Part shown: one piece after another, positions 1-62,921 of the stretch
Layout: the number at the start of each line of letters is the position of its first letter
Position numbering within the stretch: the stretch's first letter is position 1
Source: a virus
Virus record (IMG/VR): IMGVR_UViG_3300042308_001049
Location: 32,001-96,000 of that record
Strand: one strand, 5' to 3'
Length of the DNA stretch: 64,000 nt
The notes under the pieces: generated by a model
Databases searched by the model: none
What the model was told of the DNA's origin: nothing
The model's input: only the letters and a program-made list of their open reading frames with translations
Position numbers and translations under genes: made by a program

Positions 1-2
1 AG

Positions 3-140
3 GACGACGGAGAAGGAGGATACGATGAGAATAAAGAGTTCATCGAGGTACTATCTAAAAACGATTATGAGGACCTAGAACAAACGGTAGCCGAGTATCG
101 AGAACAGGGAGTATTGGATGAGTATTATGTTGTGAAATAA
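3..140 (+). CDS. 3' end of an acidic hypothetical protein (truncated by window edge)
   Basis: Open frame DDGEGGYDENKEF...YYVVK* ending TAA at 138-140. Confidence 0.6.
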   Translation, partial: DDGEGGYDENKEFIEVLSKNDYEDLEQTVAEYREQGVLDEYYVVK

Positions 141-496
141 TAACACCGGAATTTAACGCGTACGTACGTAGTACGTACGTGGTACTGATGTACTGATGTG
201 TGTAAAGTGTGTGTGGGGTGCTGGGAAAACTAGCACCCCATATCTATGGATTTAAGTAGATAATGAGATATAAAGATAATTAGATAATAATATAGGAAGA
301 TAATAATATAAGTAGATACAAATGTGGTCTGCTACATATAGATGTATATTGGGAGATAAGGAGATACGGATGTGTGTGGAAAACGGGCGGACGAGTGGGT
401 GGGGTGAGGGGTGGGGGGAGTGAACCCCCTCAACATGCACAAGCCAAGCCTTAGTCTCGATAAGAGATATAAGGATATATCAAAAAATGATAAAAG

Positions 497-728
497 TTTT
501 GACAGGGTTTGTTTGGCTTCCCCATCTCTTTTGACATTCTTTTGACAGAGTTTTGACAAAGTTTTAAAAAAAGAACAAAAAAAGCTGACAAAGGGGTTTT
601 ACCCCCGGGGGATCTTCTGGGGGAGGGGGAGATCTTTCCACGCGATAGGCAAACCCTGTCCACCCCTATGGTTAATAGGCAAGATCTATCACCATTTTTT
701 TGACATTCTTTTGACAGAGTTTTGACAT
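497..728. repeat. TTTTGACA 11-bp-period repeats (two triplets plus one single copy)
   Basis: TTTTGACATTC-TTTTGACAGAG-TTTTGACA at about 529-558 and 698-727, single copy at 497. Confidence 0.85.
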
Positions 729-860
729 TTTGTTTGGCCCCCTAAGAAATCTTTATTATCTTTATATTGGGGAAACCTACCCCGGGGGGGGGAGAGGAAA
801 GTAGGTTTGGCTTCGTAAGAGAGGGATGTTATATTTAGGTGTAATTAAAAAATAAATGTT

Positions 861-1040
861 ATGAGTATTGAAAACAGTTTCTCAGGTATCACTTTCCAAA
901 TGGCTAAGGCGTTAGGTAAGTATCAAGGCTTTGCTCAGTTCTTGAAAGAAGGAAATGACACAATGACTAAAGAACAGATCATTGCTCGTTTAATTGAGAT
1001 TGATGAGGAGTTTGAGGCCAATGTTAAGAAAAAATCATAG
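861..1040 (+). CDS. Small early protein, 59 aa (paralog of 1096-1275)
   Basis: MSIENSFSG...ALGKYQG...TKEQII...KKKS*; follows the conserved leader. Confidence 0.8.
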   Translation: MSIENSFSGITFQMAKALGKYQGFAQFLKEGNDTMTKEQIIARLIEIDEEFEANVKKKS

Positions 1041-1095
1041 GCTTGGCTACCCAAAAGATAGATGTTATATTTAGGTGTAATTAAAAATTAAGGTT

Positions 1096-1275
1096 ATGGG
1101 AAACGAATTCATCAACATGCTCCAAACAGCAATGCGTTTTGCAAGTGCATTAGGTAAGCACGAGGGTAATATCAAATTTATCCTAAATGAACAAGATAAT
1201 CTCTCCAAAGAAGATATTATTCGCTACTTACAGGAGACATATGATGAAGTAAATTCAATACTTTCTCAGGAATAA
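1096..1275 (+). CDS. Small early protein, 59 aa
   Basis: MGNEFINML...ALGKHEG...SKEDII...SQE*; follows the conserved leader. Confidence 0.8.
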   Translation: MGNEFINMLQTAMRFASALGKHEGNIKFILNEQDNLSKEDIIRYLQETYDEVNSILSQE

Positions 1276-1337
1276 GTTTGGCTACCCAAAAGATAGATGT
1301 TATATTTAGGTGTAATTAAAAATTAAAAATAAAGGTT

Positions 1338-1502
1338 ATGGCAAACATGAGTTATTGCAGGTTCGAAAACACTTACCACGATTTGGTAGATTGTTTTGAC
1401 AACATTTGGAGTGAAGCTGAGAATGAAAGAGATGAGCGTTACCGTCAACGAATGATTGAGTTTTTGAAAGAACGGATTGATGATATTGAAGAAATGGAGT
1501 GA
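1338..1502 (+). CDS. Small early protein, 54 aa (MSYCRFENT motif)
   Basis: MANMSYCRFENTYHDLVDC...; follows the conserved leader. Confidence 0.8.
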   Translation: MANMSYCRFENTYHDLVDCFDNIWSEAENERDERYRQRMIEFLKERIDDIEEME

Positions 1503-1556
1503 GGGGCTTGGCCCCCCACTTTTTTCTTATTATATTTAGACGTAATTAAAAATTAA

Positions 1557-1793
1557 ATGGTTATGAAGATTATTAAAGTTACAAGTCTTAAAGACAAATC
1601 ATCAATATACATAAATGTTGAACAAATAGGGCATTTTTTTAGAGTTCCTAAAAGAATGAATTACGGTCGTGTTGAGGAAGAAGAAAATACCAGAGTAGGA
1701 GTTACAACTCATAATAATGGTGGATTTTCAATAGTTGAAACTCCTGAAACATTGTTAAAGTTAATTGATAAGGTTTTGGCTCCTCAAAAGTAG
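1557..1793 (+). CDS. Hypothetical early protein (likely start 1563)
   Basis: ORF track; conserved leader. Confidence 0.8.
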   Translation: MVMKIIKVTSLKDKSSIYINVEQIGHFFRVPKRMNYGRVEEEENTRVGVTTHNNGGFSIVETPETLLKLIDKVLAPQK

Positions 1794-1829
1794 TTTGTTA
1801 TATTTAGACGTAATTAAAAATTAAAGGTT

Positions 1830-1901
1830 ATGAAAAAGCAAGCATTTGTTATCGCGGTGATCACATTTATCTCAACTGCTATTGTGTTGTACGCAAAATA
1901 A
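1830..1901 (+). CDS. 23-aa hydrophobic micropeptide
   Basis: MKKQAFVIAVITFISTAIVLYAK* exactly fills the gap between two promoter modules. Confidence 0.7.
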   Translation: MKKQAFVIAVITFISTAIVLYAK

Positions 1902-1958
1902 GGTTTGGCTACATTAAAAATAGATGTTATATTTAGGTGTAATTAAAAATTAAAGGTT

Positions 1959-2126
1959 ATGAAACATCCAGAGTATTCAAGAGCAAATAATGAGTATCAA
2001 GGTCGTAGTGAAGCGCCCCGTATTCCAAGAGAAGCAAGATTAGCTTTGAAACAGAGAATGATTGATTTTGGAGTGCATTTGAAGGCACTTGAAGAGAAGA
2101 TTAAGAGAGAGAAGCCAGTGTATTAA
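1959..2126 (+). CDS. Small basic early protein, 55 aa
   Basis: MKHPEYSRANN...KPVY*; conserved leader. Confidence 0.8.
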   Translation: MKHPEYSRANNEYQGRSEAPRIPREARLALKQRMIDFGVHLKALEEKIKREKPVY

Positions 2127-2150
2127 GGTCACTTAAGAGGTAAGTGATAC

Positions 2151-2174
2151 AGGGGGGCGGGGGCCCCCCTTTTA
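2151..2174 (+). terminator. Intrinsic terminator
   Basis: AGGGGGGC-GGGG-GCCCCCCT followed by T run. Confidence 0.7.
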
Positions 2175-2221
2175 TATTCTCCCTGGGGCTACTTACAGAC
2201 TCCTGCCTAGGGTTCCCCACC

Positions 2222-2253
2222 TAAATATACGTAAATTTTTCCGGCAAGCCAAG
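2222..2253 (-). promoter_or_regulatory. Minus-strand early-type promoter, back-to-back with the + promoter at 2254
   Basis: CTTGGCT-N17-TATATTTA on - strand; palindrome AGCCAAG|CTTGGCT at 2247-2260. Confidence 0.75.
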
Positions 2254-2309
2254 CTTGGCTAACAGGGGGATTATTCGTATATTTAAATGTAATTAAAAAC
2301 GAAACGGTT

Positions 2310-2465
2310 ATGTATCATTTAAATTGCCCTTACTACAAAAAGAAGTTTGAGACCATTTATGAGTTGTTAGATGATATTGTGTTGTCAGGAATGGACCCTA
2401 ACTATACAGTATACAAAGATGGTAAGAGTGTAGGGACTAAAGCTATTCACTTAATTCAGTTTTGA
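2310..2465 (+). CDS. Small early protein, 51 aa
   Basis: MYHLNCPYY...SGMDPNY...IQF*; conserved leader. Confidence 0.8.
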   Translation: MYHLNCPYYKKKFETIYELLDDIVLSGMDPNYTVYKDGKSVGTKAIHLIQF

Positions 2466-2515
2466 TTTGGTTACCCAAAATATATTTTGTATATTTAAAT
2501 GTAATTAAAAATTAA

Positions 2516-2713
2516 ATGGTTATGGAAGATAATAAAGTTGTAGTAGACACAGTAATTGATTTGCTAAACAATATGGATTGTGATGGTGAAACAATGCAAT
2601 TTATACTTAAAAAAGTAGGAATGGAATGGCAGATGTTAAGGCAGTTGATGTTAACTATGCCTATAGAACAGGTAGAATATCTGATAGACGAACGGAAGGA
2701 TTTGGGTATTTAA
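2516..2713 (+). CDS. Hypothetical early protein
   Basis: ORF track; conserved leader. Confidence 0.8.
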   Translation: MVMEDNKVVVDTVIDLLNNMDCDGETMQFILKKVGMEWQMLRQLMLTMPIEQVEYLIDERKDLGI

Positions 2714-2752
2714 GAGAACGTTCGTATATTTAATCAAATAAAAATAATGGTT

Positions 2753-2920
2753 ATGAAAATAGGAGACAAAGTAAAGTATGATGGTGAAGCTCACCTAATT
2801 GTAAACATTGTAGATGGTTACCCAGTAGTGGTACCTATGAGTGTAATTGATGATGAGTGTTTTATCATTGAGTATGAAGGTGATGGGTGTCACGAATTTG
2901 ATTTGATCCCGATAAAATAA
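2753..2920 (+). CDS. Small early protein, 55 aa
   Basis: MKIGDKVKYDG...PIK*; leader ends GGTTATG. Confidence 0.75.
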   Translation: MKIGDKVKYDGEAHLIVNIVDGYPVVVPMSVIDDECFIIEYEGDGCHEFDLIPIK

Positions 2921-3145
2921 ATGGTTATGAGTAAAATTAAGTTTTTAAAAGAAATGTTTATTGAATGTTGTATTGGATTTGATGATTTTGGAGATCCAAT
3001 AATGGAAGAGGAAAAAGTATTAAAAGGTGAGGAATTTGAAGTAGATATTGTTAGTGATGAAGTTGATGAAGATATTATCCAAATTCAATTTGGGAATGGT
3101 TCTGTTAGTTTTATTGATAGAAATGATATTGAAATAGAGGACTAA
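2921..3145 (+). CDS. Acidic hypothetical early protein
   Basis: ORF track; ATGGTTATG start. Confidence 0.8.
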   Translation: MVMSKIKFLKEMFIECCIGFDDFGDPIMEEEKVLKGEEFEVDIVSDEVDEDIIQIQFGNGSVSFIDRNDIEIED

Positions 3146-3222
3146 TAAAATAAGGGTGGGGAGCAGGTTTGGCTTCGCCAGAGAGGGATGTTATATTTAG
3201 ACGTAATTAAAAATTAAAGGTT

Positions 3223-3714
3223 ATGAAAGCAAAAGAAATGTCAGAAGAGGTTTATGATGAGTTGATCCGTTTGGATTACCACCGCAAAGTGAATTCAGTG
3301 TATGAAGTTAACACCTCAGTAGATTTTAGTAGTTTTGATAAAGAAACTCAAAAGGCAATTAGTACGTTTCCTGTTCTTATGTTTAATCCAGATACTGACT
3401 TAATGGATATTGAGAATCTAGATGGGGAACAGCAGTTTTATATTTTGTTTACTCGAAATAGAAACTATTTGATTGATACTCAAGGTTATACTTACCCACG
3501 TTATATTATTGGGTTGAATAACTTGAAGTTCGAAGAAGATGAAGACGACATCTACGAACGTATGGAAGGCTTGGTTCGTATTGCCGACAGTAAGATTTTT
3601 GATGAGGTAACAAAGAGTTTGGCTTTCGAATTAAATAAAGAAGACTTTGACCACGAAGATATTGTAAACTATTTGTTTATGAAGGTTCAATTAGCGCTTG
3701 GCTCACACCGATAA
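3223..3714 (+). CDS. Hypothetical early protein (DTQGYTYPRY motif)
   Basis: ORF track; conserved leader. Confidence 0.85.
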   Translation: MKAKEMSEEVYDELIRLDYHRKVNSVYEVNTSVDFSSFDKETQKAISTFPVLMFNPDTDLMDIENLDGEQQFYILFTRNRNYLIDTQGYTYPRYIIGLNNLKFEEDEDDIYERMEGLVRIADSKIFDEVTKSLAFELNKEDFDHEDIVNYLFMKVQLALGSHR

Positions 3715-3752
3715 TTTTATTATATTTAGGTGTAATTAAAAAATAAATGGTT

Positions 3753-3917
3753 ATGAATGGAATGTTTTATGTAGTGGTTGAACAAGATGTGGCCTCAGTT
3801 GTAAATGCTAGTTTGGCTTTGACTCTCGAAATGGATCCATATTTTGATGGTGAATTGTATGGTGCTTATTCAAGTTATGAACAGGCTGCTGATCATGCCA
3901 ACCAGGTCAATCTCTAA
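3753..3917 (+). CDS. Small early protein, 54 aa
   Basis: MNGMFYVVVEQD...VNL*; conserved leader. Confidence 0.75.
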   Translation: MNGMFYVVVEQDVASVVNASLALTLEMDPYFDGELYGAYSSYEQAADHANQVNL

Positions 3918-3980
3918 AGATTGATTTGGCTACCCAGAATATTTTTGTTATATTTAAATGTAATTAAAAATTAAAAGGTT

Positions 3981-4676
3981 ATGAAAGAGCAACTGATTGA
4001 GCAAATTGAAGGTTTAAAAGCCATCAAAGAAGAAGCACGCAATAACAAGGCTATGAAAATTAGTTCTTTGTTTCATGAGGTGTTTGATTTGAAAGATGTA
4101 GAATATTCAAATCTGAATATTGGTTCTGAACGGGCTGAGTTTAGCTTCAATAATGAATATTCTGGTCAGTTTACAGTTTTGTATTACGAGACATATGGTG
4201 ATGATGAGACCAAATTAGAAGTAAGTGTACCATCATCTTACAGTGAAGATGTTTCACGTTTGATTCAGTGGGGTAAGATTGCAGAACAAATTGAATTGAA
4301 GGGTAGTGAGTTTTTAACTAAACTAAAAGTACTCCGAAACGAATATAAAGCAGGAATTGAGGTCACTAACAACATGTTGTATGAGGCTGAAACTAGATTG
4401 AAGTTTATTCAAAATAAAGAAAATGCAGTTGATTTAGAATTGACTAAAACGGCTTTGAGAACTGTAGGTCATCAATTTGAAACAGGTCATTGGGTGCAAG
4501 TAGGAGCAATGGATAGTGTTTATACTGACAGTATCCGGATTGAACAAACACCAGGTAAGAAAACATATAAAGTTCATTATGTAAACTTAGGCCGCCCGGC
4601 TACATATGAACGAGTACGAGAAATGTATATCAATAAATTGGCTCAAGAATTGGTAAATAACTCTAAAAACGCCTAA
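3981..4676 (+). CDS. Hypothetical early protein, 231 aa
   Basis: ORF track; conserved leader. Confidence 0.85.
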   Translation: MKEQLIEQIEGLKAIKEEARNNKAMKISSLFHEVFDLKDVEYSNLNIGSERAEFSFNNEYSGQFTVLYYETYGDDETKLEVSVPSSYSEDVSRLIQWGKIAEQIELKGSEFLTKLKVLRNEYKAGIEVTNNMLYEAETRLKFIQNKENAVDLELTKTALRTVGHQFETGHWVQVGAMDSVYTDSIRIEQTPGKKTYKVHYVNLGRPATYERVREMYINKLAQELVNNSKNA

Positions 4677-4678
4677 CC

Positions 4679-4810
4679 ATGAACCAGCAAGAATTAACCA
4701 CCAAGTTGATTGAATTGAAATCACAGGTAACAGGCACAACACCTTACGCATACGGTTTGTTAGACGGTTTAACAATGGCAATAGAAGAAATAGAGAGTCC
4801 CCGATCATAA
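4679..4810 (+). CDS. Small protein, 43 aa
   Basis: MNQQELTTKLIELK...YGLLDGLTMAIEEIESPRS* starts 2 nt after the previous stop. Confidence 0.65.
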   Translation: MNQQELTTKLIELKSQVTGTTPYAYGLLDGLTMAIEEIESPRS

Positions 4811-4842
4811 CCATTTTTAATTACACCCGCGTTATGGGGACT
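4796..4842 (+). ncRNA. Hairpin with loop antisense to the shared early-gene leader
   Basis: AGTCCC/GGGACT and CATAAC/GTTATG stems; 4806-4827 is the reverse complement of GGTGTAATTAAAAATGGTTATG. Confidence 0.55.
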
Positions 4843-4909
4843 AGGGGAGCCAGGTTTGGCTCCCCACTCTTTTATTGTTATATTTAGACGTAATTAAAAA
4901 TTAAAGGTT

Positions 4910-5176
4910 ATGCTGTTAGTAGAGTTTAAAGAAATGGTTAACGACGGTAAAATATTCTCCGTTGTATTTACTAAGAAGGATGGTACGATCCGAAAAATGG
5001 TAGCGCGGTTAGGGGTGCGTAAGCATCTTAAGGGAGGCGAATTGAAATACGACGCCGCTGCCCGCAATTTATTGCCTGTATTTGATATGGAGAAAGAAGA
5101 ATATCGTATGATTAATGTTTCAACCATACAAGAAATTAAAGTGGGTGGTGCTAAGATTGATTTGGCTACGCTATAA
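4910..5176 (+). CDS. SH3/WYL-like beta-barrel protein
   Basis: FSVVFTKKDGTIRKM...VFDMEKEEYRMIN pattern typical of phage WYL_2/SH3-barrel proteins. Confidence 0.7.
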   Translation: MLLVEFKEMVNDGKIFSVVFTKKDGTIRKMVARLGVRKHLKGGELKYDAAARNLLPVFDMEKEEYRMINVSTIQEIKVGGAKIDLATL

Positions 5177-5215
5177 TTTGATGTTATATTTAGACGTAAT
5201 TAAAAATTAAGTGTT

Positions 5216-5461
5216 ATGAAAAAAGTGCAGTTTAAAAGTGACGTTTATGGTTTCGTTTACGATTCAGTTTATGGCGAAGTTAGTAAAGTGTTTAATACAC
5301 CTTTAAATGAATCAGAATTAGAATTAATTGAGAGTGTATTAAGTGAAGATGATTGTATTTTCACAGATATTGATTCAGTAAATGCAGTGTTTGAATTTGA
5401 TGAGAATAGTTTGGAGTGTGATGTTGAGGGTTTGAATACAGTATTAGAGTACGCAGAATAA
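5216..5461 (+). CDS. Very acidic early protein
   Basis: ORF track; conserved leader. Confidence 0.8.
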   Translation: MKKVQFKSDVYGFVYDSVYGEVSKVFNTPLNESELELIESVLSEDDCIFTDIDSVNAVFEFDENSLECDVEGLNTVLEYAE

Positions 5462-5542
5462 AATAAAAACAAAGGTGGTGATGAGCTTGGCTCACGCCAC
5501 CTTTTTTATTATATTTAAACGTAATTAAAAAATTAAAAGGTT

Positions 5543-5812
5543 ATGAAAATGATTGATTTAAATGTTGCTTTTAGAGAGGCGATGGATGTAGCATCTTATG
5601 AAGATGTATTGGGTATTATAGAGAGTTATGAGGATGAAAGTATATTAGATGACTTTAAACTTGAGTTTGTTGAAGGTGAAGATATTAGTAAAGATGACTA
5701 TAGTTACTTCTCTATTAGTTTGATAGATGATATAAGTGAAGTTGGTTATATACAGGCCAATTGGATTTATATTTGGGATAAGGATATTTTTGAAAAGACT
5801 GAGTTACTTTAA
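5543..5812 (+). CDS. Very acidic early protein
   Basis: ORF track; conserved leader. Confidence 0.8.
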   Translation: MKMIDLNVAFREAMDVASYEDVLGIIESYEDESILDDFKLEFVEGEDISKDDYSYFSISLIDDISEVGYIQANWIYIWDKDIFEKTELL

Positions 5813-5885
5813 AATAAAAACAAAGGTGGCGATGGGCTTGGCTCACGCCACCTTTTTTATTATATTTAACCGTAATTAAAAATTA

Positions 5886-6152
5886 ATGGTTATGAAAGCA
5901 AAAGGAATTAAAGCAATGATGACGTTGCTGGAGAAGAAGGGTTGCAAGGTGTGTGGCACCACAGAGGATTTTTACGGCCGCCATAACAGCACACCAGGCG
6001 TTTGGATCGCAGCAGACCACACACCTGAATTGTTCAACTACTGGAGTTCAAATGGAGTATTGATTAGTGGTAAGTTGAATAGGGCAGTTCAGAAAGCCGG
6101 ATGGTGGTTTGAGTGGCACGATCCAGGAACGATTATGGTATGGCCACACTAA
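5886..6152 (+). CDS. Hypothetical early protein (GWWFEWHDPGT motif)
   Basis: ORF track; conserved leader. Confidence 0.8.
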   Translation: MVMKAKGIKAMMTLLEKKGCKVCGTTEDFYGRHNSTPGVWIAADHTPELFNYWSSNGVLISGKLNRAVQKAGWWFEWHDPGTIMVWPH

Positions 6153-6231
6153 CCAGGGTGGGGAGCCGGTTTGGCTCCCCGCTTATTTTTTGTTATATTT
6201 AGATGTAATTAAAAATTAAAAACAAAAGGTT

Positions 6232-6426
6232 ATGACAGTTCAAGAATTGATTGATAAGTTGAGTCAGGTTAAAAACAAAAACTTAGAAGTAGTAGTTCAG
6301 GTTACTGACCCAACAGATTGGGAGTACAACAACTCAATTGAATTTACTGAGGTTCAAAGTGTATTATTGGTTGAGGATGATGATGATGAGACTGAAGTAT
6401 TTGTAATTAATGGGGGTGATGTTTGA
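6232..6426 (+). CDS. Small acidic early protein (MTVQELIDKL)
   Basis: ORF track; conserved leader. Confidence 0.8.
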   Translation: MTVQELIDKLSQVKNKNLEVVVQVTDPTDWEYNNSIEFTEVQSVLLVEDDDDETEVFVINGGDV

Positions 6427-6484
6427 TCACCCCTTATTTTTTTACCCCAAAAAGGGATGTTATATTTAGACGTAATTAAAAATA

Positions 6485-6823
6485 ATGGTTATGAAAAACG
6501 AAAAAATGATCGTGAATGAAGAGTTGATCGGTAAATACATCAACCAGGTATTGTGGAGCGATGTTAATCCGGTAGGCAAAATTATCGCAATCAAAGGCAA
6601 AACCAAAGTATTGATTCAACCGGTTTGTGCCAGCAAAAATAAAGCCAAAATGGAATTCGTACCGGGTGGTTTTTCAGCGGTGTGTTTGAATCAAAATGAA
6701 CAACATTACGATTTCATGGAGGTGGGAGAGGTATTTGAAACGACTCTGAGCCATGCCAAGATGAAAAAAGCGTTCTGGAATATTGACGACGCACCATATA
6801 AGCAATATGATTATAACTTCTAA
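6485..6823 (+). CDS. Hypothetical early protein (ends YDYNF)
   Basis: ORF track; conserved leader. Confidence 0.8.
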   Translation: MVMKNEKMIVNEELIGKYINQVLWSDVNPVGKIIAIKGKTKVLIQPVCASKNKAKMEFVPGGFSAVCLNQNEQHYDFMEVGEVFETTLSHAKMKKAFWNIDDAPYKQYDYNF

Positions 6824-6842
6824 ATAGAAGATACGGAGAGGG

Positions 6843-6873
6843 GAAAGGGCCGAAAGGCTCTTTCTTCTTTTTT
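6843..6873 (+). terminator. Intrinsic terminator closing the early array
   Basis: GAAAGGGCC-GAAA-GGCTCTTTC then TTCTTTTTT. Confidence 0.8.
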
Positions 6874-7227
6874 GGAAAAGAGGGGTGTACGTGGTACGTG
6901 ATATATACTTTATATGTGGTATATCCCCCCGCGCGCTGTTATCCATACATGCTTGGATACTGGGAAAGAATTTTTTTGATGTAAGGATGAAATAAAGGTA
7001 ACTTCCACCATCGGATAGTATATACTTATATATTTGCACCGCCCACCATACCCCCATACCACACCATCCTATACCATGCCCATCCCCCACACCCACACCC
7101 CAATTTCCGGATTTGCCCTTTTACCCATTTTTTCCAGCTCCCTAAATCCTTCTTTCTTAAAAAAGTTTGGCTACCATAAGGTATATACATATATTCAGGT
7201 ATTAATGAAAACAAAGTAAATAAGTTT

Positions 7228-7446
7228 ATGTGGGCATTTGCAGTTGTAGGAGCATTATTACTATTCGCGTTTATTAACGGTTTAATTCACTTATTTAAAC
7301 CAGACAAACCCACTATCATTAGATGTATCGCCTTTATGGTCGGGTTGGTATTATCCAATATTTTATTTGATTGGGGAATTGAACGTATGGAATGGTTTTT
7401 AGGACTGTCTATTACTATGGTGGGTCTTTGGAAATGGTATGAGTAA
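7228..7446 (+). CDS. Small membrane protein
   Basis: About 3 hydrophobic segments; promoter variant at about 7167. Confidence 0.7.
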   Translation: MWAFAVVGALLLFAFINGLIHLFKPDKPTIIRCIAFMVGLVLSNILFDWGIERMEWFLGLSITMVGLWKWYE

Positions 7447-7564
7447 GGAGCGTATATACGGATATGTGGATGTGGGTGGGATGCAAGGAAACTTTCGAGC
7501 TGAGGCTTGGCTTCCCAAGATTTTTTCCATAACTTCACCCCACTGGAGTTAATAAATTAAGGTT

Positions 7565-7723
7565 ATGAAGATTCGCTTTAATGATACATTTCTATTTATT
7601 ATTGGAATTATATTTTTCATAGGAGGATATTTTACTGAGACTATAGGTTCATATTTTGTATTTGGTTTATGTCTTGGTACTTTAATTAATCACGCTGTCC
7701 AAGATTTTAAGAATAAAAAATAA
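7565..7723 (+). CDS. Small membrane protein, 52 aa
   Basis: MKIRFNDTFLFIIGIIFFIGG...KNKK*; AAGGTTATG leader; TAATG overlap with next gene. Confidence 0.7.
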   Translation: MKIRFNDTFLFIIGIIFFIGGYFTETIGSYFVFGLCLGTLINHAVQDFKNKK

Positions 7724-8226
7724 TGAGTTACTATTCAGAAACATCTATTAAACATCCTATTCAAAAGATTACTTATGAAGAGGCTAAACAATATATTCCC
7801 TTAAAAGAAGATTATACTGGTGTAACAGTAGATAAATGTCCATACTACACCATGACTGAAGGTGAGGACGGGTGGACTCTGGTGACATATTACACTGGGA
7901 GAAAACGAGCGAGGTATGTTAACCTAGATAAAGAATATGATTCATGGGTTTATGTTATATCTAACCCTAGCATTCCTGGTCAAATAAAAATTGGTTATAC
8001 TGATCTTACTCCTGAGAAACGAGCTCAACAATTGTCTCGATCAACAGGTGTTCCAACTCCATTTATTGTTGAATGGGCATTCCATTGTTTTAATGGGGCT
8101 CAATTGGAAGGTGAGGTTCATCGTTACTTAGAGGCATCACGTGTGTCTGGTAATAGAGAATTTTTTGATACTTCTATTAGTGAAGCTAGAGACACTATTG
8201 TTAGGTTCGGACAAAATTATCTTTAG
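7723..8226 (+). CDS. T5orf172/GIY-YIG-like domain protein
   Basis: WVYVISNPSIPGQIKIGYT...RAQQLS..TGVP.PF...REFF. Confidence 0.85.
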   Translation: MSYYSETSIKHPIQKITYEEAKQYIPLKEDYTGVTVDKCPYYTMTEGEDGWTLVTYYTGRKRARYVNLDKEYDSWVYVISNPSIPGQIKIGYTDLTPEKRAQQLSRSTGVPTPFIVEWAFHCFNGAQLEGEVHRYLEASRVSGNREFFDTSISEARDTIVRFGQNYL

Positions 8227-8282
8227 GTTTGGCTACCCAAGAATATATACATATATTTAGGTGTTAATTAAAAATTAAAGTT

Positions 8283-9467
8283 ATGAGTAAAACAAAGAAA
8301 CATGATCTGGTATCGGTAAACGTGAATGAGCTCAAAGAGTTCCTTACCCATATCATCAACAACAACCGTTACCTGCAAGAGAATGGTAAGCCATCAGTTT
8401 CAATTGAAGTTGTAGGTGAATCAGGTATTGGTAAAACATCTTCAATCATCCAGCTAGCTAATGAGTTGGATTTGCATTTTGTTAAATTGAACCTCGCACA
8501 AATTGAAGAAATTGGTGACTTGGTTGGTTTTCCAATCCGTCAATTTGAACTTACAAAAGGTTCTGATAAAGTATGGGTTGATGAGAATTTGATTAAAGAA
8601 TATCAAGATCAAGGTTTTAAATCAACTGGTTTGAACCGAATGAGTTACTGCGCACCTGAATGGATTAGTGGTAAAGAAAAAGGAGGTATTTTGCTTCTGG
8701 ATGACTGGAACCGCGCTGATATTCGTTTCATTCAAGCTGTAATGGAGCTGATTGATCGTCAACAATATATTAGCTGGACATTACCTAAAGATTGGCATAT
8801 CATTTTGACTGCTAATCCTGACACAGGTGAATATTTGGTTAATAGTATTGATAACGCACAAAAAACACGATTTATTTCAGTTAATCTAAAGTATGATGTT
8901 GACTGTTGGGGTAAATGGGCTGAAGAAAATGAAATGGATGGTCGTTGTATCAACTTCATGCTTATGCATCCTGAATTGGTTACTAAAGAGATAAACAGCC
9001 GAAGTGTTAGTATGTTCTTTAATTCTATTTCTTCACTTAAGAATTTTGAAGAGTCATTGCCTCTAATTCAAATGGTTGGAGAAGGATCAGTTGGTTCTGA
9101 GTTTAGTACTATGTTCACTATGTTTATTAATAACAAGTTGGACCGTATGATTACTCCTGAGAATATCTTGAACCAAGATGAAAAGTATGTTATGAATACT
9201 TTAAAAAGTTTAGTTGGTAAGGAAGATAAATATCGAGCAGATATTGCCTCAACACTCTCAACTCGATTGGCTAACTATTTGGATATTAAAGCTAAAACTG
9301 AGAAAATCTCAAATGAAATTATTAACCGTATCTCGGCACTGGTAAAGGAGGAAATTTTTACCACTGATATCTGTTACAATATGGTTAAGAATATCTACAA
9401 TAGTAATCCGACACAGTTCAAGATGATGATGGTAGATAAGAATTTGGTTAAATATATTATGAAATAA
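8283..9467 (+). CDS. MoxR-like AAA+ ATPase
   Basis: Walker A GESGIGKT, Walker B LLLDDWNRA, TANP. Confidence 0.85.
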   Translation: MSKTKKHDLVSVNVNELKEFLTHIINNNRYLQENGKPSVSIEVVGESGIGKTSSIIQLANELDLHFVKLNLAQIEEIGDLVGFPIRQFELTKGSDKVWVDENLIKEYQDQGFKSTGLNRMSYCAPEWISGKEKGGILLLDDWNRADIRFIQAVMELIDRQQYISWTLPKDWHIILTANPDTGEYLVNSIDNAQKTRFISVNLKYDVDCWGKWAEENEMDGRCINFMLMHPELVTKEINSRSVSMFFNSISSLKNFEESLPLIQMVGEGSVGSEFSTMFTMFINNKLDRMITPENILNQDEKYVMNTLKSLVGKEDKYRADIASTLSTRLANYLDIKAKTEKISNEIINRISALVKEEIFTTDICYNMVKNIYNSNPTQFKMMMVDKNLVKYIMK

Positions 9468-9470
9468 GTT

Positions 9471-10532
9471 ATGAGTAAGAATACATACGCTATATATTCA
9501 ATAAGAAATTACAACAATGATATCATTATATATGATTCAAGTAGCCAGACAAAAGACCCATATAAATTTAAAAGTAATTTTGCCCCACTTGTAGAGTTCG
9601 CTGGAGAGCTTCTTAAAGATAAATCACAAAAGCCTCATGGGAATGTTTATACAGCCACTACTTGCAAGATTCCACGTGATAAAATGAAGGTTTATTTTCA
9701 AGAAAATAATCTTAAGAAAACTACTCGTACTTATTTAGCTGATACTGTATTGATTGATCTAGAATCTCTTGATAAGGTTCTTAGAATATTTCCAAAACAA
9801 CATAGTTGGACTAAAGGATTTATGATCCCTTCAGAGGATGTTGTAAAGAATAGCCATCTTTTTGATATTGATCATAATAGAAACAATTCATGGTCTCAAC
9901 CATATTTTACAATACATGATCAAGTACTTAAAGGAGAACATGATGTTTTTATTAAAACATATGATGATAGAGCTACTCAAATTGTCAAATCGTCATTTCC
10001 AGAGGCTGAGAAAATTGAAATTTTAAGTTATCCAACTGGAGATCTTCTTAAAACACTTGAACTTCTAACTTTCCTTAAAAGTCACCCAAATATTACAGTA
10101 GTATTTGATACTACTTTAAATGAGGGGATGACTAATGAAGGTATTGAGATGGATGACGAGATTGAGAAACAAGTAATGCAAATGCTTAAATCTACAGATA
10201 TTAATGACACTAAAATGGCGATTGAGATTTGTAGTAACTTTGATTTAGAAAAATCATTGTTTCGTATTGCTTTTATGTTTAACAAACATAAGAATTGTTT
10301 TATTGGTAAGCAAAGTATGCTAACTAAAACTAGTTACAAACAAATTGATGCTTATATTCGTAGTAAAGGTATTGGTTGGATGAGTGATCGAGATACATTC
10401 TTAAGTGATATGTTTGTACTTTATAAGGATGATGAAAAAATTACTCCAATTATTAAACGACACATCCAGGACTATCTTCAATCTCAACTTAAACATACTA
10501 AAATTAAACTAACTGACATTAGTTTGGCTTAA
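9471..10532 (+). CDS. Hypothetical protein in MoxR/vWA operon
   Basis: 353-aa ORF between the ATPase and vWA genes. Confidence 0.8.
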   Translation: MSKNTYAIYSIRNYNNDIIIYDSSSQTKDPYKFKSNFAPLVEFAGELLKDKSQKPHGNVYTATTCKIPRDKMKVYFQENNLKKTTRTYLADTVLIDLESLDKVLRIFPKQHSWTKGFMIPSEDVVKNSHLFDIDHNRNNSWSQPYFTIHDQVLKGEHDVFIKTYDDRATQIVKSSFPEAEKIEILSYPTGDLLKTLELLTFLKSHPNITVVFDTTLNEGMTNEGIEMDDEIEKQVMQMLKSTDINDTKMAIEICSNFDLEKSLFRIAFMFNKHKNCFIGKQSMLTKTSYKQIDAYIRSKGIGWMSDRDTFLSDMFVLYKDDEKITPIIKRHIQDYLQSQLKHTKIKLTDISLA

Positions 10533-10571
10533 CCCAATATCTTACTTATATTTAGGTAAAAGAAATAAGTT

Positions 10572-11741
10572 ATGAATGTATATGAAGAAGTAGTTAAACA
10601 CTCAAAGAAGTTAATGTTTGACGAACCATTCTATGGGTTGATGCTCATAGCGATGAATAAGGAACTTAGTGAGCGAATTGACACTGCATGTGTTACTCGA
10701 GATAATATCAACACTAAGTTGATGGTCAATCCTGAGTTTTGGGCTACATTGGATGAGAGTACTAAAACAGGTGTTCTTAAACATGAGTTGCTCCATATCG
10801 CGTTCTTTCACCTACTTAATATGGATGGTTTTCCAGATCGTAAACTACACAACGTAGCCGCGGATTTGGAAATTAACCAGTATATTGAGGATAATTATAA
10901 AGGAGAAAAATGGGATGGTTTAGAGATTCATAAGGAACCATTTGCTAAACTTAATCTTGAACCTAAACAAGGTACTAAGTATTACTACTCAATGCTCCAG
11001 GAGGAAATTCAAAACAATCCTGAAGGTGATGTAGCCAAGTTTATGGAAGGAATGGATCCGATGCATGAGTTATGGGAAGCATTTGATGGTTTGTCTGATG
11101 CTGAAAAGAAGCTTATTGCTAAACAAATCGACCACCAACTCAAAGAAATTGCTGATCAGGTTCAAAAGAGCTGTGGTACTATACCAGGTGAGTTGAAAGA
11201 TTATGTTTTAGGTTTGTTTGAGATGGAAGAACCAGTATTGGACTGGAAAGCTTACCTACGACGTTTTAATGGTATGTCTCAAAAGATTCTTACTAAAAAG
11301 ACTCGTCGTAAACCATCTCGACGTTACCCATCTAATCCCGCCCTTAAAGTAAAGCCTAAGAAACGTACACTTGTTGCCATAGACACATCAGGTAGCGTAA
11401 ATAACGATGAATTAAAGGAGTTCTTTAATGAAATCTATCACATGTATAAAACCGGAACTGAGATTACAGTGGTTGAATGTGACGCTAAAATTCAACGAGA
11501 GTATGAATATAAAGGTAAGTTAGAAGAAATTAAGGTAGCAGGACGTGGTGGTACTGATTTTGAACCAGTGATGGTTTACCTAAAAGAACATCAAAACAAG
11601 TTTCAAAACCTAATTTATTTTACTGATGGTGAATGTAGTGCTCCTGAAACAAAACCGATGAAACCTATTTTGTGGGTTCATAGTTCACGTTCACCTATCA
11701 ATGAAGAACTCCCAGGAGCTAAAATTAAAATTACCCGATAA
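10572..11741 (+). CDS. Metallopeptidase-like + vWA domain protein (DUF2201-like)
   Basis: HELLH, NVAADLEIN, MIDAS DTSGS, GRGGTDF, FTDG. Confidence 0.88.
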   Translation: MNVYEEVVKHSKKLMFDEPFYGLMLIAMNKELSERIDTACVTRDNINTKLMVNPEFWATLDESTKTGVLKHELLHIAFFHLLNMDGFPDRKLHNVAADLEINQYIEDNYKGEKWDGLEIHKEPFAKLNLEPKQGTKYYYSMLQEEIQNNPEGDVAKFMEGMDPMHELWEAFDGLSDAEKKLIAKQIDHQLKEIADQVQKSCGTIPGELKDYVLGLFEMEEPVLDWKAYLRRFNGMSQKILTKKTRRKPSRRYPSNPALKVKPKKRTLVAIDTSGSVNNDELKEFFNEIYHMYKTGTEITVVECDAKIQREYEYKGKLEEIKVAGRGGTDFEPVMVYLKEHQNKFQNLIYFTDGECSAPETKPMKPILWVHSSRSPINEELPGAKIKITR

Positions 11742-61032: not shown

Positions 61033-61348
61033 TTTAATTACAGTACCTCGTTCTACAGTTATAAGTGCTATTACCAAGTATAATGATTGTAAACTTGAAC
61101 TTCAATATAGTCAAGAAAAATTATTTGCTACTGAAACTAAAGTAAAATTACATCAAGAAGAAATTCTAAATTTAAATAATCTTATATCTAATAAAGATAT
61201 TGAGATAACTAATTTAGGTGAAATAATTAAATTAAGAGACAGTGAAATAAAAGCTCTAAAACAATCAAAAAGAGCTAAGTTTTGGAATGGTGCATTACTA
61301 GGATTCGGCAGTGGTACTGTCCTTTTATTCACAGTGCTCCAGTTATAA
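60956..61348 (+). CDS. Secreted coiled-coil protein, possible spanin partner
   Basis: Signal-peptide-like N-terminus, hydrophobic C-terminus. Confidence 0.55.
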   Translation: MHKTLLSLMLCLTLSFPALSQNSSTDLITVPRSTVISAITKYNDCKLELQYSQEKLFATETKVKLHQEEILNLNNLISNKDIEITNLGEIIKLRDSEIKALKQSKRAKFWNGALLGFGSGTVLLFTVLQL

Positions 61349-61352
61349 TATT

Positions 61353-62921
61353 ATGAGTGATCAAGATTTAAGAAAAATAATCCAACAGGAATACATAAAA
61401 TGTGCCCAAGACCCAGGACACTTTATGCGTAAATACTGTTACATCCAACACCCACAACGCGGTAGGATCACTTTTAATCTATTCCCATTCCAGGAAAAAG
61501 TACTCCATTTATGGAGAGATAATCCTTACTCTATTGTTTTAAAATCTCGCCAGTTAGGTATTTCAACTCTAGCAGCTAGTTATTCTTTATGGTTAATGAC
61601 TTTCCATAAAGATAAAAACGTATTGTGTCTCGCAACTACTCAGGAGACAGCCAAGAACATGGTTACCAAGGTTCGTTTCATGTATGATAACTTACCTTCC
61701 TGGCTTAAAGTAAAAGAGATAGAAAACAACCGTTTGAGTTTAAGACTAGCAAATGGATCACAAATTAAAGCCAAATCATCAAATAGTGACGCAGCACGTT
61801 CAGAAGCAGTATCTTTGCTGGTAATTGACGAAGCTGCCTTTATCGATAACGTAGCAGAAACATGGGCATCAGCACAACAAACACTTGCCACAGGTGGTGG
61901 AGCAATAGTACTTTCAACACCGTATGGAACTGGAAACTGGTTTCACCAGACATGGGTGAGGGCGGAAGCAGCAGAGAACGACTTCTTACCTATCAAATTA
62001 CCATGGTATGTCCACCCGGAGAGGGATGAGGAATGGAGAAAAAAACAAGATGAATTACTAGGTGACCCTAGAGCAGCAGCACAAGAATGTGACTGCGACT
62101 TTAGTACCTCAGGTGATACTGTTTTCTATTCTGAATGGTTAGAATTTATCTCTCAAACCACTATTAAAGAACCTCTAGAAAGACGAGGTGCTGATAAAAA
62201 CTTATGGGTTTGGGAACCAGCTGATTACTCTAGAGATTATATGGTAGTGGCTGACGTAGCTAGAGGTGATGGTAAAGACTTCTCAGCAGCTCACGTCATG
62301 GATATAGCTACTAATACACAAGTAGCTGAATATAAAGGACAATTAAGCCCTAAAGAATTTGGACATTTCCTTGTTGGTTTAGCTTCAGAATATAATAATG
62401 CTTTATTAGTAGTAGAAAATGCTTCTATTGGTTGGGCTACTATTGAGACTATACAAGAAAGAGGCTATCAGAACTTCTATTTGTCACCTAAGAGTGATCA
62501 ATTAACAGCTGAGTCGTATTTTAATAGATATGAATTCAGCAATAATTTAACTCCAGGTTTTACCATGTCAATGAAAACAAGACCACTTGTAGTAAATAAA
62601 TTTAGAGAATATGTTGGTGATAGAAGTGTCACTATCAACTCTAAACGTTTATTAGAAGAAATGAAAGTATTTGTTTGGAAAAACGGTAGACCAGAAGCAC
62701 AATCCGGTTATAATGATGACTTAGTAATGTCATTTGGTATTGGGATGTTCTTAAGAGATACCTCACTTAAATTCCAACAACAAGGTCTAGACATGACTAG
62801 AGCGGCTCTTAATAACATGGCTAAAAATACTACAGCTGGTGTATTTAGTGGTAATTCAATTCAAAACCCATACATTCAAGAAATGGGAAAACAAAAAGAG
62901 GATCTACGTTGGCTCCTTTAA
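61353..62921 (+). CDS. terL: Terminase large subunit (T4 gp17-like)
   Basis: KSRQLGIST, LVIDEAAF, LSTPYG, ADVARG, NDDLVMS. Confidence 0.95.
   Translation: MSDQDLRKIIQQEYIKCAQDPGHFMRKYCYIQHPQRGRITFNLFPFQEKVLHLWRDNPYSIVLKSRQLGISTLAASYSLWLMTFHKDKNVLCLATTQETAKNMVTKVRFMYDNLPSWLKVKEIENNRLSLRLANGSQIKAKSSNSDAARSEAVSLLVIDEAAFIDNVAETWASAQQTLATGGGAIVLSTPYGTGNWFHQTWVRAEAAENDFLPIKLPWYVHPERDEEWRKKQDELLGDPRAAAQECDCDFSTSGDTVFYSEWLEFISQTTIKEPLERRGADKNLWVWEPADYSRDYMVVADVARGDGKDFSAAHVMDIATNTQVAEYKGQLSPKEFGHFLVGLASEYNNALLVVENASIGWATIETIQERGYQNFYLSPKSDQLTAESYFNRYEFSNNLTPGFTMSMKTRPLVVNKFREYVGDRSVTINSKRLLEEMKVFVWKNGRPEAQSGYNDDLVMSFGIGMFLRDTSLKFQQQGLDMTRAALNNMAKNTTAGVFSGNSIQNPYIQEMGKQKEDLRWLL

Follow-up and report, generated by a model that had tools for sequence, protein, structure and literature searches.

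The stretch of DNA analyzed here (the window, 64,000 nt) comprises bases 32001–96000 of the virus record IMGVR_UViG_3300042308_001049, which is 130,563 bp long and has a G+C content of 34%; the phage is a freshwater one of the Flavobacterium type. Window positions 800–8300 hold a run of small plus-strand genes with an identical cassette before each, and one unit of this early array, a pair of genes at 3981–4810, is followed by a hairpin that carries an inverted copy of the cassette leader and start codon (Table 1). This anti-leader, which a sequence-only reading of the window had proposed to be a joint repressor of the early mRNAs, is the subject of the present analysis. The window also encodes, at 61311–62921, the large terminase subunit (TerL), which is 60.6% identical to the TerL of Flavobacterium phage vB_FspM_immuto (immuto in the following), the nearest isolate; given this closeness, the most likely host is a member of the Flavobacteriia. 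Relatives of this TerL are encoded at more than 600 IMG/VR loci, and a blastn search with window 3900–5300 returned no close relative among isolated phages.

Table 1. Features of the two-gene unit and its surroundings (window coordinates)
Feature	Position	Strand	Basis
Cassette of the unit: −33 box TTGGCT, −7 box TATATTTA (3949–3956), leader, ATG at 3981	3926–3983	+	sequence, promoter scan
Gene P0001, 231 aa, conserved, no known family	3981–4676	+	
Gene P0002, 43 aa/codons; its stop TAA (4808–4810) lies inside the anti-start CATAAC	4679–4810	+	
Hairpin H1: 7-bp outer stem, 4-nt bulge, 5-bp inner stem, 16–19-nt loop	4796–4842	+	fold
Anti-leader: exact antisense of GGTGTAATTAAAAATGGTTATG (leader plus ATG)	4806–4827	+	pattern search
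Intrinsic terminator (stem-loop 4844–4866 plus T run); loop and 3' arm contain the −33 box of the next cassette	4844–4875	+	fold
Next cassette (promoter, leader, ATG at 4910) of a WYL_2-domain gene; this neighbor differs in relatives	4856–4912	+	
Minus-strand open reading frame, 73–75 codons, judged not to be a gene	4587–4814	−	no minus-strand promoter, not conserved

Each cassette begins with a terminator stem-loop that has TTGGCT in its loop and 3' arm, followed 17 nt on by TATATTTA, a further 3 nt on by GTAATTAAAAA and, after a spacer of variable length, by GGTTATG. A regular-expression search of window 1–9000 gave 17 cassettes with the exact core plus a few variants, rather than the "about 18" early mRNAs of the earlier count; GTAATTA is present in all 17 leaders, most of which also have AAAGGTTATG or AATGGTTATG. 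The 11-mer leader core has 17 exact plus-strand copies, each behind a TATATTTA box, and one minus-strand copy, at 4806–4827, in the window as in the whole 130,563-bp record; nowhere else in this 130.5-kb phage genome does the minus strand carry the early-cassette leader. The promoter-plus-leader motif (TATATTTA, 3 nt, GTAATTAAAAA, ..GGTTATG) also heads genes in many other viral contigs (IMG/VR loci L002, L003, L005, L013, L014, L021, L023 and others) and appears to be a family-wide or host-wide expression signal. Its presence in so many other phage contigs does not agree with the suggestion that the hairpin explains why the leader is conserved.

Read on the plus strand, 4806–4827 is the exact reverse complement of GGTGTAATTAAAAATGGTTATG; it was the sole match at up to three mismatches, and shuffling (100 shuffles) gave an expectation of zero. 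In the fold of 4780–4885, H1 consists of an outer stem pairing 4796–4802 with 4836–4842 and an inner stem pairing 4807–4811 with 4831–4835, the anti-start being held in the inner stem. Pattern search and fold thus confirmed the sequence-only reading in what it had said of the hairpin and its stem-bound anti-start, and its description of the element as the leader consensus minus a short bulge is fair, the leader spacers being 3–13 nt longer than the inverted copy (only 3 nt longer in the cassette at 6472). Directly 3' of H1 stands the terminator hairpin (4844–4866), a G+C-rich stem of nine pairs, seven of them G–C, with a 4-nt loop and a T run (ACTCTTTTAT), so that the accessible loop of 16–19 nt adjoins an intrinsic terminator. 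The fold of 4780–4885 reached −36.9 kcal/mol (z −4.59; none of 200 shuffled sequences was as stable) and the hairpin alone −11.5 kcal/mol, and no Rfam family matched at E ≤ 1 within window 1–9000. Counts of antisense 9-mers and 11-mers were dominated by AT-rich low-complexity sequence; the element forms the largest antisense cluster of the window (11 k-mers, against at most seven in controls). Hairpin stem (AGTCCCC/GGGGACT) and terminator stem (GGGGAGCC/GGCTCCCC) are alike enough for 5-bp partner swaps, and an antitermination-like alternative is conceivable.

As an in-frame ATG stands behind the leader-like sequence and opens a reading frame of 73–75 codons, the inverted leader might be thought to start a minus-strand gene (4814–4587). 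The minus strand, however, has neither a −7 nor a −33 box for such a gene, which would also be antisense to two conserved genes, and the open reading frame, 73 codons long in the window, ends after 22 codons in the relative L111 and after 27–32 codons in 12 other relatives. We consider a gene at this place very improbable, and translation from the inverted leader, the outcome named beforehand as fatal to a regulatory role, finds no promoter and no conserved frame. An intact inverted early cassette, which the earlier reading had likewise dismissed, was rejected on the same two grounds: there are no minus-strand promoter boxes (TATATTTA is missing upstream of the leader copy), and the frame behind the leader is not conserved. 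The only minus-strand cassette promoter found in the scan lies at 2224–2252; it has a −7 box, lacks both leader and open reading frame and reads into a G+C-rich structured stretch, and RNA from it is a candidate small RNA (sRNA). Window 2128–2290 contains a divergent promoter pair whose common −33 box is the palindrome AGCCAAGCTTGGCT, and a similar leaderless minus-strand promoter is found in phage immuto (L128:37532).

One metagenome scan with P0001 provided 15 loci at 52–87% identity, two of which end inside the gene. In all 13 loci that extend past the P0001 homolog, P0002 (with changes that, as judged by eye, are mostly synonymous), the hairpin and a terminator are kept, whereas behind the next cassette the gene varies from locus to locus. 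Since the hairpin is constant with the gene pair while the downstream gene varies, the element, to judge from these comparisons, belongs to the 3' end of the two-gene unit 3981–4810. The loop sequence is kept even where the amino acid identity of P0001 is down to 52–58%. Three hairpin types can be distinguished, those of the window, of L111 and of a 12-locus clade, and each folds as a hairpin plus terminator (z −4.2 to −4.8). The hairpin of L111 is shorter by one C–G pair, the loss being matched on both arms, and it has a new closing pair and an extra T in the loop; although the terminator stems differ, its loop departs from that of the window by an inserted T and a single base. In the 12-locus clade, the loop is the antisense of GTGTAATTGAAGGTTATG, and the leaders of this clade are commonly GTGTAATTGAAAA..(T)GAAGGTTATG (GTAATTG...GAAGGTTATG). 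The proposed check on relatives thus came out in favor of the element: the hairpin is kept, and its loop follows the leader variant of the relatives. The internal deletion of the anti-leader differs between lineages, both of its flanks being perfectly matched. In an alignment of 11 loci of this clade, the fraction of variable columns was 33.8% for P0001 (238/705), 6.5% for P0002 (8/124), 2.4% for the hairpin (1/42) and 15% for the terminator (3/20). Within IMG/VR, neither single-protein searches nor searches with alignment A1 found P0001 relatives, five large related IMG/VR records likewise contained none, and the exact 22-mer and the hairpin pattern gave no matches.

The 22-mer pairs with all 17 leaders, the duplex energies ranging from −14.3 to −24.4 kcal/mol (mean −18.7), and none of 1273 control 22-mers of the same strand reached this mean (control mean −5.1, best −9.6). 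It is, then, complementary to the start regions of several mRNAs, in step with the leader type of its lineage. For a comparison across whole arrays, the 97 nt before each promoter core were scored against all leaders of the same phage, using 34-nt leaders. This junction test gave one outlier among 26 junctions in the window genome (robust z −8.9), two among 30 in the IMG/VR record G004 (robust z −6.7 and −6.2) and one among 22 in immuto (robust z −7.5). The outlier junction of the window scored −25.0 against a median of −12.6, its reversed-leader control reaching at best −17.4, and in all three genomes these controls lay well above the outlier values. The test missed the elements of L012 and L018, whose leaders are longer than 34 nt and whose promoters were missed by the box pattern; in L115 and L120 a second junction was equally low, but so was the reversed-leader control.

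The build common to these elements is a stop codon, an anti-leader and a terminator, and it was found with other leader types, each element matching its own leader, twice in G004 and once in the cultured phage immuto. G004 (163 kb, TerL 75%) has leaders of the type ATAATTAAAA..CACATG. On the sense strand it carries two anti-leaders that match this type, both of them placed directly after a stop codon and ahead of a terminator-like hairpin, as well as a third, weaker candidate; the genes before the two elements encode a RecA-like ATPase (P0040) and P0041, neither of which is P0001-like. When elements and leader sets were exchanged, the G004 elements scored −18.9 and −18.4 against the G004 leaders and −9.4 to −12.6 against the GGTTATG-type sets (window, L115, L120), and the window element behaved in the reverse manner. 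In immuto, whose leaders are of the type ATCAATAATTAAAA, the 5' part of the leader has an exact antisense copy of 15 nt at about position 72,098 of the phage record, 1 nt past the stop of gene 136 and before a terminator; hhalign alone relates gene 136 to P0001, as a probable distant homolog (probability 80%, E 1.4e-5), BLASTP being negative.

A regular-expression scan of 127 loci (709 kb) returned 16 hits, of which four (L111, L006, L012 and L018) are sense-strand elements without a promoter box, the other 12 having been classed on visual inspection as ordinary cassettes viewed from the opposite strand. The elements of L006 and L012 come after a 62-codon gene. At L018:2745–2815, a tRNA-like gene (Rfam tRNA, 38.3 bits, with a shortened anticodon arm; ARAGORN finds none) lies inside an early cassette unit and is followed by the anti-leader and a terminator. 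In L012 and L018 the anti-start is exposed by the loops of small hairpins whose stems are not alike, and in all eight folded elements the anti-leader is predicted to be mostly unpaired, with a strong 3' hairpin adjoining. The units that carry anti-leaders rank 5/24, 4/22, 9/22 and 2/21 in length, which is a trend only.

Within the unit itself, the promoter at 3926–3956 and the terminator at 4844–4866 bracket the two genes, no terminator-like site being predicted between them, and the consensus scan found no cassette-type promoter at 4200–4856. In the minimum-energy fold of 3957–4875, positions 4805–4825 are predicted to pair with the unit's own leader (3959–3984). Anti-leader and own leader form two paired blocks of 13 and 8 nt (−18.0 to −19.6 kcal/mol), and the own leader beats the next leader as a partner in 10 of 11 cases. 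In five lineages the own leader ranks 8/26 (window), 1/18, 1/30, 5/30 and 6/22, while the ranks of the downstream leader are 15/26, 9/18, 7/30, 12/30 and 3/22.

These comparisons bear on a role in read-through, in which the anti-leader, in RNA passing the terminator, would pair with the next leader (4888–4912), so that the downstream gene would be translated only from its own promoter, or the duplex would be cut. T4 genes e, soc and I-TevI are reportedly silenced by occlusion of this kind in early read-through transcripts. In read-through RNA, pairing of the anti-leader with the next leader comes close in energy to the fold that keeps the hairpin (−39.5 against −41.3 kcal/mol), and the minimum-energy fold of the G004b region does contain an anti-leader:next-leader pairing. 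However, the downstream leader is the poorer partner in 10 of the 11 cases and its ranks are unremarkable, the downstream gene varies between relatives while the element stays with the upstream unit, and only one of 26 junctions has such an element; we regard occlusion as improbable. Because the own leader is preferred, the fold of the whole mRNA closes 5' on 3' and the elements are linked to particular units, we favor over it a gene-linked brake of the icaR kind, in which the 3'-end anti-leader would pair in cis with the leader of its own unit and lower translation. To this reading we assign a probability of roughly 0.4.

From the sequence and position of the element, its conservation, its tracking of the leader type and its predicted folds, we infer the ends of the transcript, the pairing in cells and the effect on translation as follows. 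Ribosomes of the Bacteroidota ignore Shine–Dalgarno (SD) sequences and depend on unstructured leaders. A two-gene early mRNA would start near 3957 at the cassette promoter and end near 4875 at the terminator, with the anti-leader lying past the last stop codon and ahead of the terminator. After transcription has reached the 3' end, the anti-leader could pair with the leader of the same molecule, which would close the mRNA 5' on 3', cover the AUG and the A-rich leader and throttle further initiation on the unit; the leader:anti-leader duplex might also be cut by RNase III. H1 would store the anti-start in its stem and show the remainder in the loop, a possible site of first contact, and ribosomes terminating at the TAA within the anti-start would open the pairing at each passage. 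As all genes of the array have an identical strong promoter and leader, only a signal at a gene's own 3' end could adjust the dose of that gene and stay with it through the shuffling of units. The leaders are near-identical, and some action in trans on other early mRNAs would be possible.

The sequence-only reading had proposed a joint effect on the early mRNAs. On a reading in trans of this kind, hairpin and terminator, about 80 nt at the unit's 3' end, would persist as an sRNA whose loop pairs with the roughly 20 early leaders and shuts off their translation jointly. All 17 leaders do pair, at −14 to −24 kcal/mol, and it is other cassettes, rather than that of the unit, that give the best pairing in the window. 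A seed that adjoins the terminator and is predicted to be unpaired is, moreover, the usual build of a base-pairing sRNA; the L018 element belongs to a tRNA-like gene's 3' trailer and would be set free by processing; and sRNAs of the Bacteroidota are described as repressing at start regions without Hfq (PMC7366714). Yet one anti-leader for about 20 equally promoted leaders is a poor stoichiometry, which would require a much higher stability of the RNA, the consensus scan shows no promoter belonging to the element, and the element stays with particular gene units, the own leader being the best fit in most lineages. The stoichiometry and the own-leader fit in 10 of 11 cases point to cis, and the joint shut-off in trans seems to us unlikely.

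The third alternative is that the element has no pairing role, being the relic of an inverted cassette or a plain stabilizing hairpin whose likeness to the leader was inherited or refreshed by gene conversion. The hairpin itself is an inverted repeat (GTTATG..GGGGACT) such as a head-to-head cassette junction would leave, divergent promoters with a common palindromic −33 box do exist in the array (2224–2290), the 11-mer core counts show no general antisense enrichment, and the approximately 20 donor copies make gene conversion conceivable. On the other hand, the loop is kept at 52–58% P0001 identity while the neighboring terminator stems change; the promoter half has been lost in every lineage, yet the leader half is a perfect match in two blocks; independent G004 elements follow the unrelated genes P0040 and P0041; the position is always between a stop codon (or a tRNA-like gene) and a terminator; and homology arms of 8–12 bp are short for gene conversion. 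We therefore hold a mere relic to be doubtful.

Several observations weigh against a brake in cis. Seven of the 11 own-versus-next comparisons are loci of one clade, and a hand-made Fisher combination of the own-leader ranks from the five lineages gave only p ~0.02, a value affected by non-independence and by ties where leaders are identical. In the window, the own leader is only the eighth best of 26 partners (−19.6 against −26.5 for the best), and the extra ACC at 4825–4827 fits cassettes of the GGT type, not the AAT type of the unit itself. The L018 element follows a tRNA-like gene instead of a stop codon, which suits a released small RNA. Phage immuto has an element without an anti-start, so that blocking of the AUG cannot be the whole story; covering of the 5' end, rather than of the AUG, may be the common denominator of the elements. 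As to conservation, a recent sweep could explain the low variation of P0002 and hairpin within the clade, gene conversion from the approximately 20 cassette copies could mimic covariation, and a count of pair covariation on the five-row hairpin alignment was uninformative, there being three sequence types, with one arm put out of register by MAFFT. For the AT-rich core 11-mers, antisense counts showed no enrichment in any of the phages, a fraction of 0.15–0.91 of the permuted controls having equaled or exceeded the observed count. Finally, the RNA-library runs gave contigs only, which show neither ends nor strand.

The contigs from RNA libraries that cover the element are no evidence of transcription, because they come without ends or strand and RNA libraries can contain DNA. 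The metatranscriptome runs X19 and X20 contain 10–12% of the sampled words and have only short contigs of a relative, at a depth of 3–7; one 151-nt RNA-library contig covers 4745–4894 and differs at two bulge positions and by one inserted T in the loop. The DNA runs X2 and X12 are identical to window 3900–4904. Their contigs over 3900–5300 connect cassette to cassette (for example 3976 to 4856, and 4905 to 5180); such joins are expected from the cassette repeats, and variants with deleted or exchanged units are possibly present as well.

P0001 has 36 homologs, the closest being P0004 and P0005 (93–94% identity), and no Pfam or PHROG family was found for it. Its AlphaFold2 (AF2) model, with a pLDDT of 79.2, has long helices on both sides of two small beta-sheets and no Foldseek match in the PDB at E ≤ 0.001. 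Neighboring early genes encode a small WYL_2 (Sm-like SH3) protein (window 4910–5176), a T5orf172/MUG113 domain protein (7723–8226) and, at 8283–11741, a MoxR-like AAA ATPase followed by a DUF2201 metallopeptidase/VWA-like protein. In the G004 array, at positions 134,600–137,420 (L125), repeats resembling GTAGGGGAATC/GTAGGGGTATC occur in runs that separate terminator-like hairpins from the promoter that follows.

Where identical promoter–leader cassettes give every early gene the same signal, a gene-linked antisense tail would be a simple answer to the problem of tuning a single gene. It would also be the first RNA control between a 3' untranslated region (3'-UTR) and a 5'-UTR, or from one RNA to many, described for a phage of the Bacteroidota, and the recurrence of the element in Flavobacterium phage immuto, cultured on Flavobacterium sp. 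LMO8, makes the idea testable at the bench. A bolder and, in our estimate, rather unlikely extension is that anti-leader tails are a general regulatory device of phages of the SD-less Bacteroidota. They might act as a one-to-many RNA shut-off of look-alike early mRNAs, or as a tether of stop codon to start site that hands terminating ribosomes back, so that RNA pairing would give bacteria a closed loop; the TAA of the window would then pair with bases that overlap the AUG.

The known systems of comparable build include the sRNAs derived from 3' ends, such as SdhX, CpxQ, SroC, DapZ and the tRNA trailer 3'ETS-leuZ, in which the seed reportedly lies just upstream of the terminator of an mRNA or tRNA operon. 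The phage element resembles these in that its seed adjoins the terminator and in that its L018 relative is found in a tRNA-like trailer; unlike it, the 3'-end-derived enterobacterial sRNAs require Hfq or RNase E processing and have unlinked host mRNAs as their targets. Within phages, the c4 RNA of P1/P7 and the CI RNA of P4 are said to be antisense to the ribosome-loading region of a phage mRNA and to be co-transcribed with their target. The c4 RNA, however, reportedly lies upstream of one target (ant) in temperate phages and serves immunity control, whereas the element described here is at the 3' end of its unit and has many look-alike targets. T4 RegA, which is said to repress many early mRNAs at their start sites, offers a functional likeness, but it is a protein and the phage element an RNA, and the T4 occluding stretches (e, soc, I-TevI) are reported to stand just upstream of single genes.

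The P1/P7 c4 RNA is named in a 2025 review of phage sRNAs, in whose accessible text a term look-up yielded nothing on a shared early leader and no occurrence of the word "leader" (PMC12197685). The early array as such is similar to the T4-type promoter-early stem-loop (PeSL) cassettes, in which stem-loop/terminator, early promoter, start signal and ATG are repeated between small genes and units are shuffled (PMC2839356, PMC4122927); here, too, stem-loop, early promoter and start signal are repeated between small genes, and units are exchanged between relatives. The PeSL papers, as far as their accessible texts go, describe direct repeats only, and the word "antisense" is absent from these texts, whereas the element in the window is an inverted, promoter-less leader copy (PMC2839356, PMC4122927). 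Searches of open-access main texts brought up no account of phage cassette arrays with an inverted copy of the leader.

To say that no equivalent has been described, as the sequence-only reading did, is nevertheless too strong, since icaR 3'-UTR/5'-UTR pairing (PMC3868564), the start-site-pairing sRNAs of the Bacteroidota (PMC7366714) and the 3'-end-derived sRNAs are known kinds. In the Bacteroidota, RNA pairing at SD-less start regions is described as repressing mRNAs (PMC7366714), and initiation as being tuned by mRNA structure (PMC6847099). As far as it is described there, GibS, like other Bacteroides thetaiotaomicron sRNAs, shares with the phage element a long AT-rich single-stranded seed across the start codons of SD-less mRNAs and a Rho-independent terminator, and it works with no Hfq; it differs in being encoded by an intergenic gene of its own, with a dedicated promoter and two or three targets in the host, whereas the phage element is an mRNA tail that mirrors a repeated cassette leader (PMC7366714). 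In the icaR mRNA of S. aureus, a 3'-UTR motif, UCCCCUG, is reported to pair with the SD region of the same mRNA, which is proposed to block initiation and could create a substrate for RNase III (PMC3868564). Like this motif, the phage element is a 3' untranslated sequence antisense to the translation start region of its own mRNA. Unlike icaR, it has no SD sequence to address: it would be directed at an A-rich leader and its AUG, in hosts of an SD-blind group, it matches over 19–22 nt rather than seven, its target is common to about 20 other mRNAs, and the setting is the early array of a lytic-type phage. The element is real, conserved and recurrent, and the reading that suits it best is that of a new phage form of antisense control, exerted from the 3' end on translation starts.

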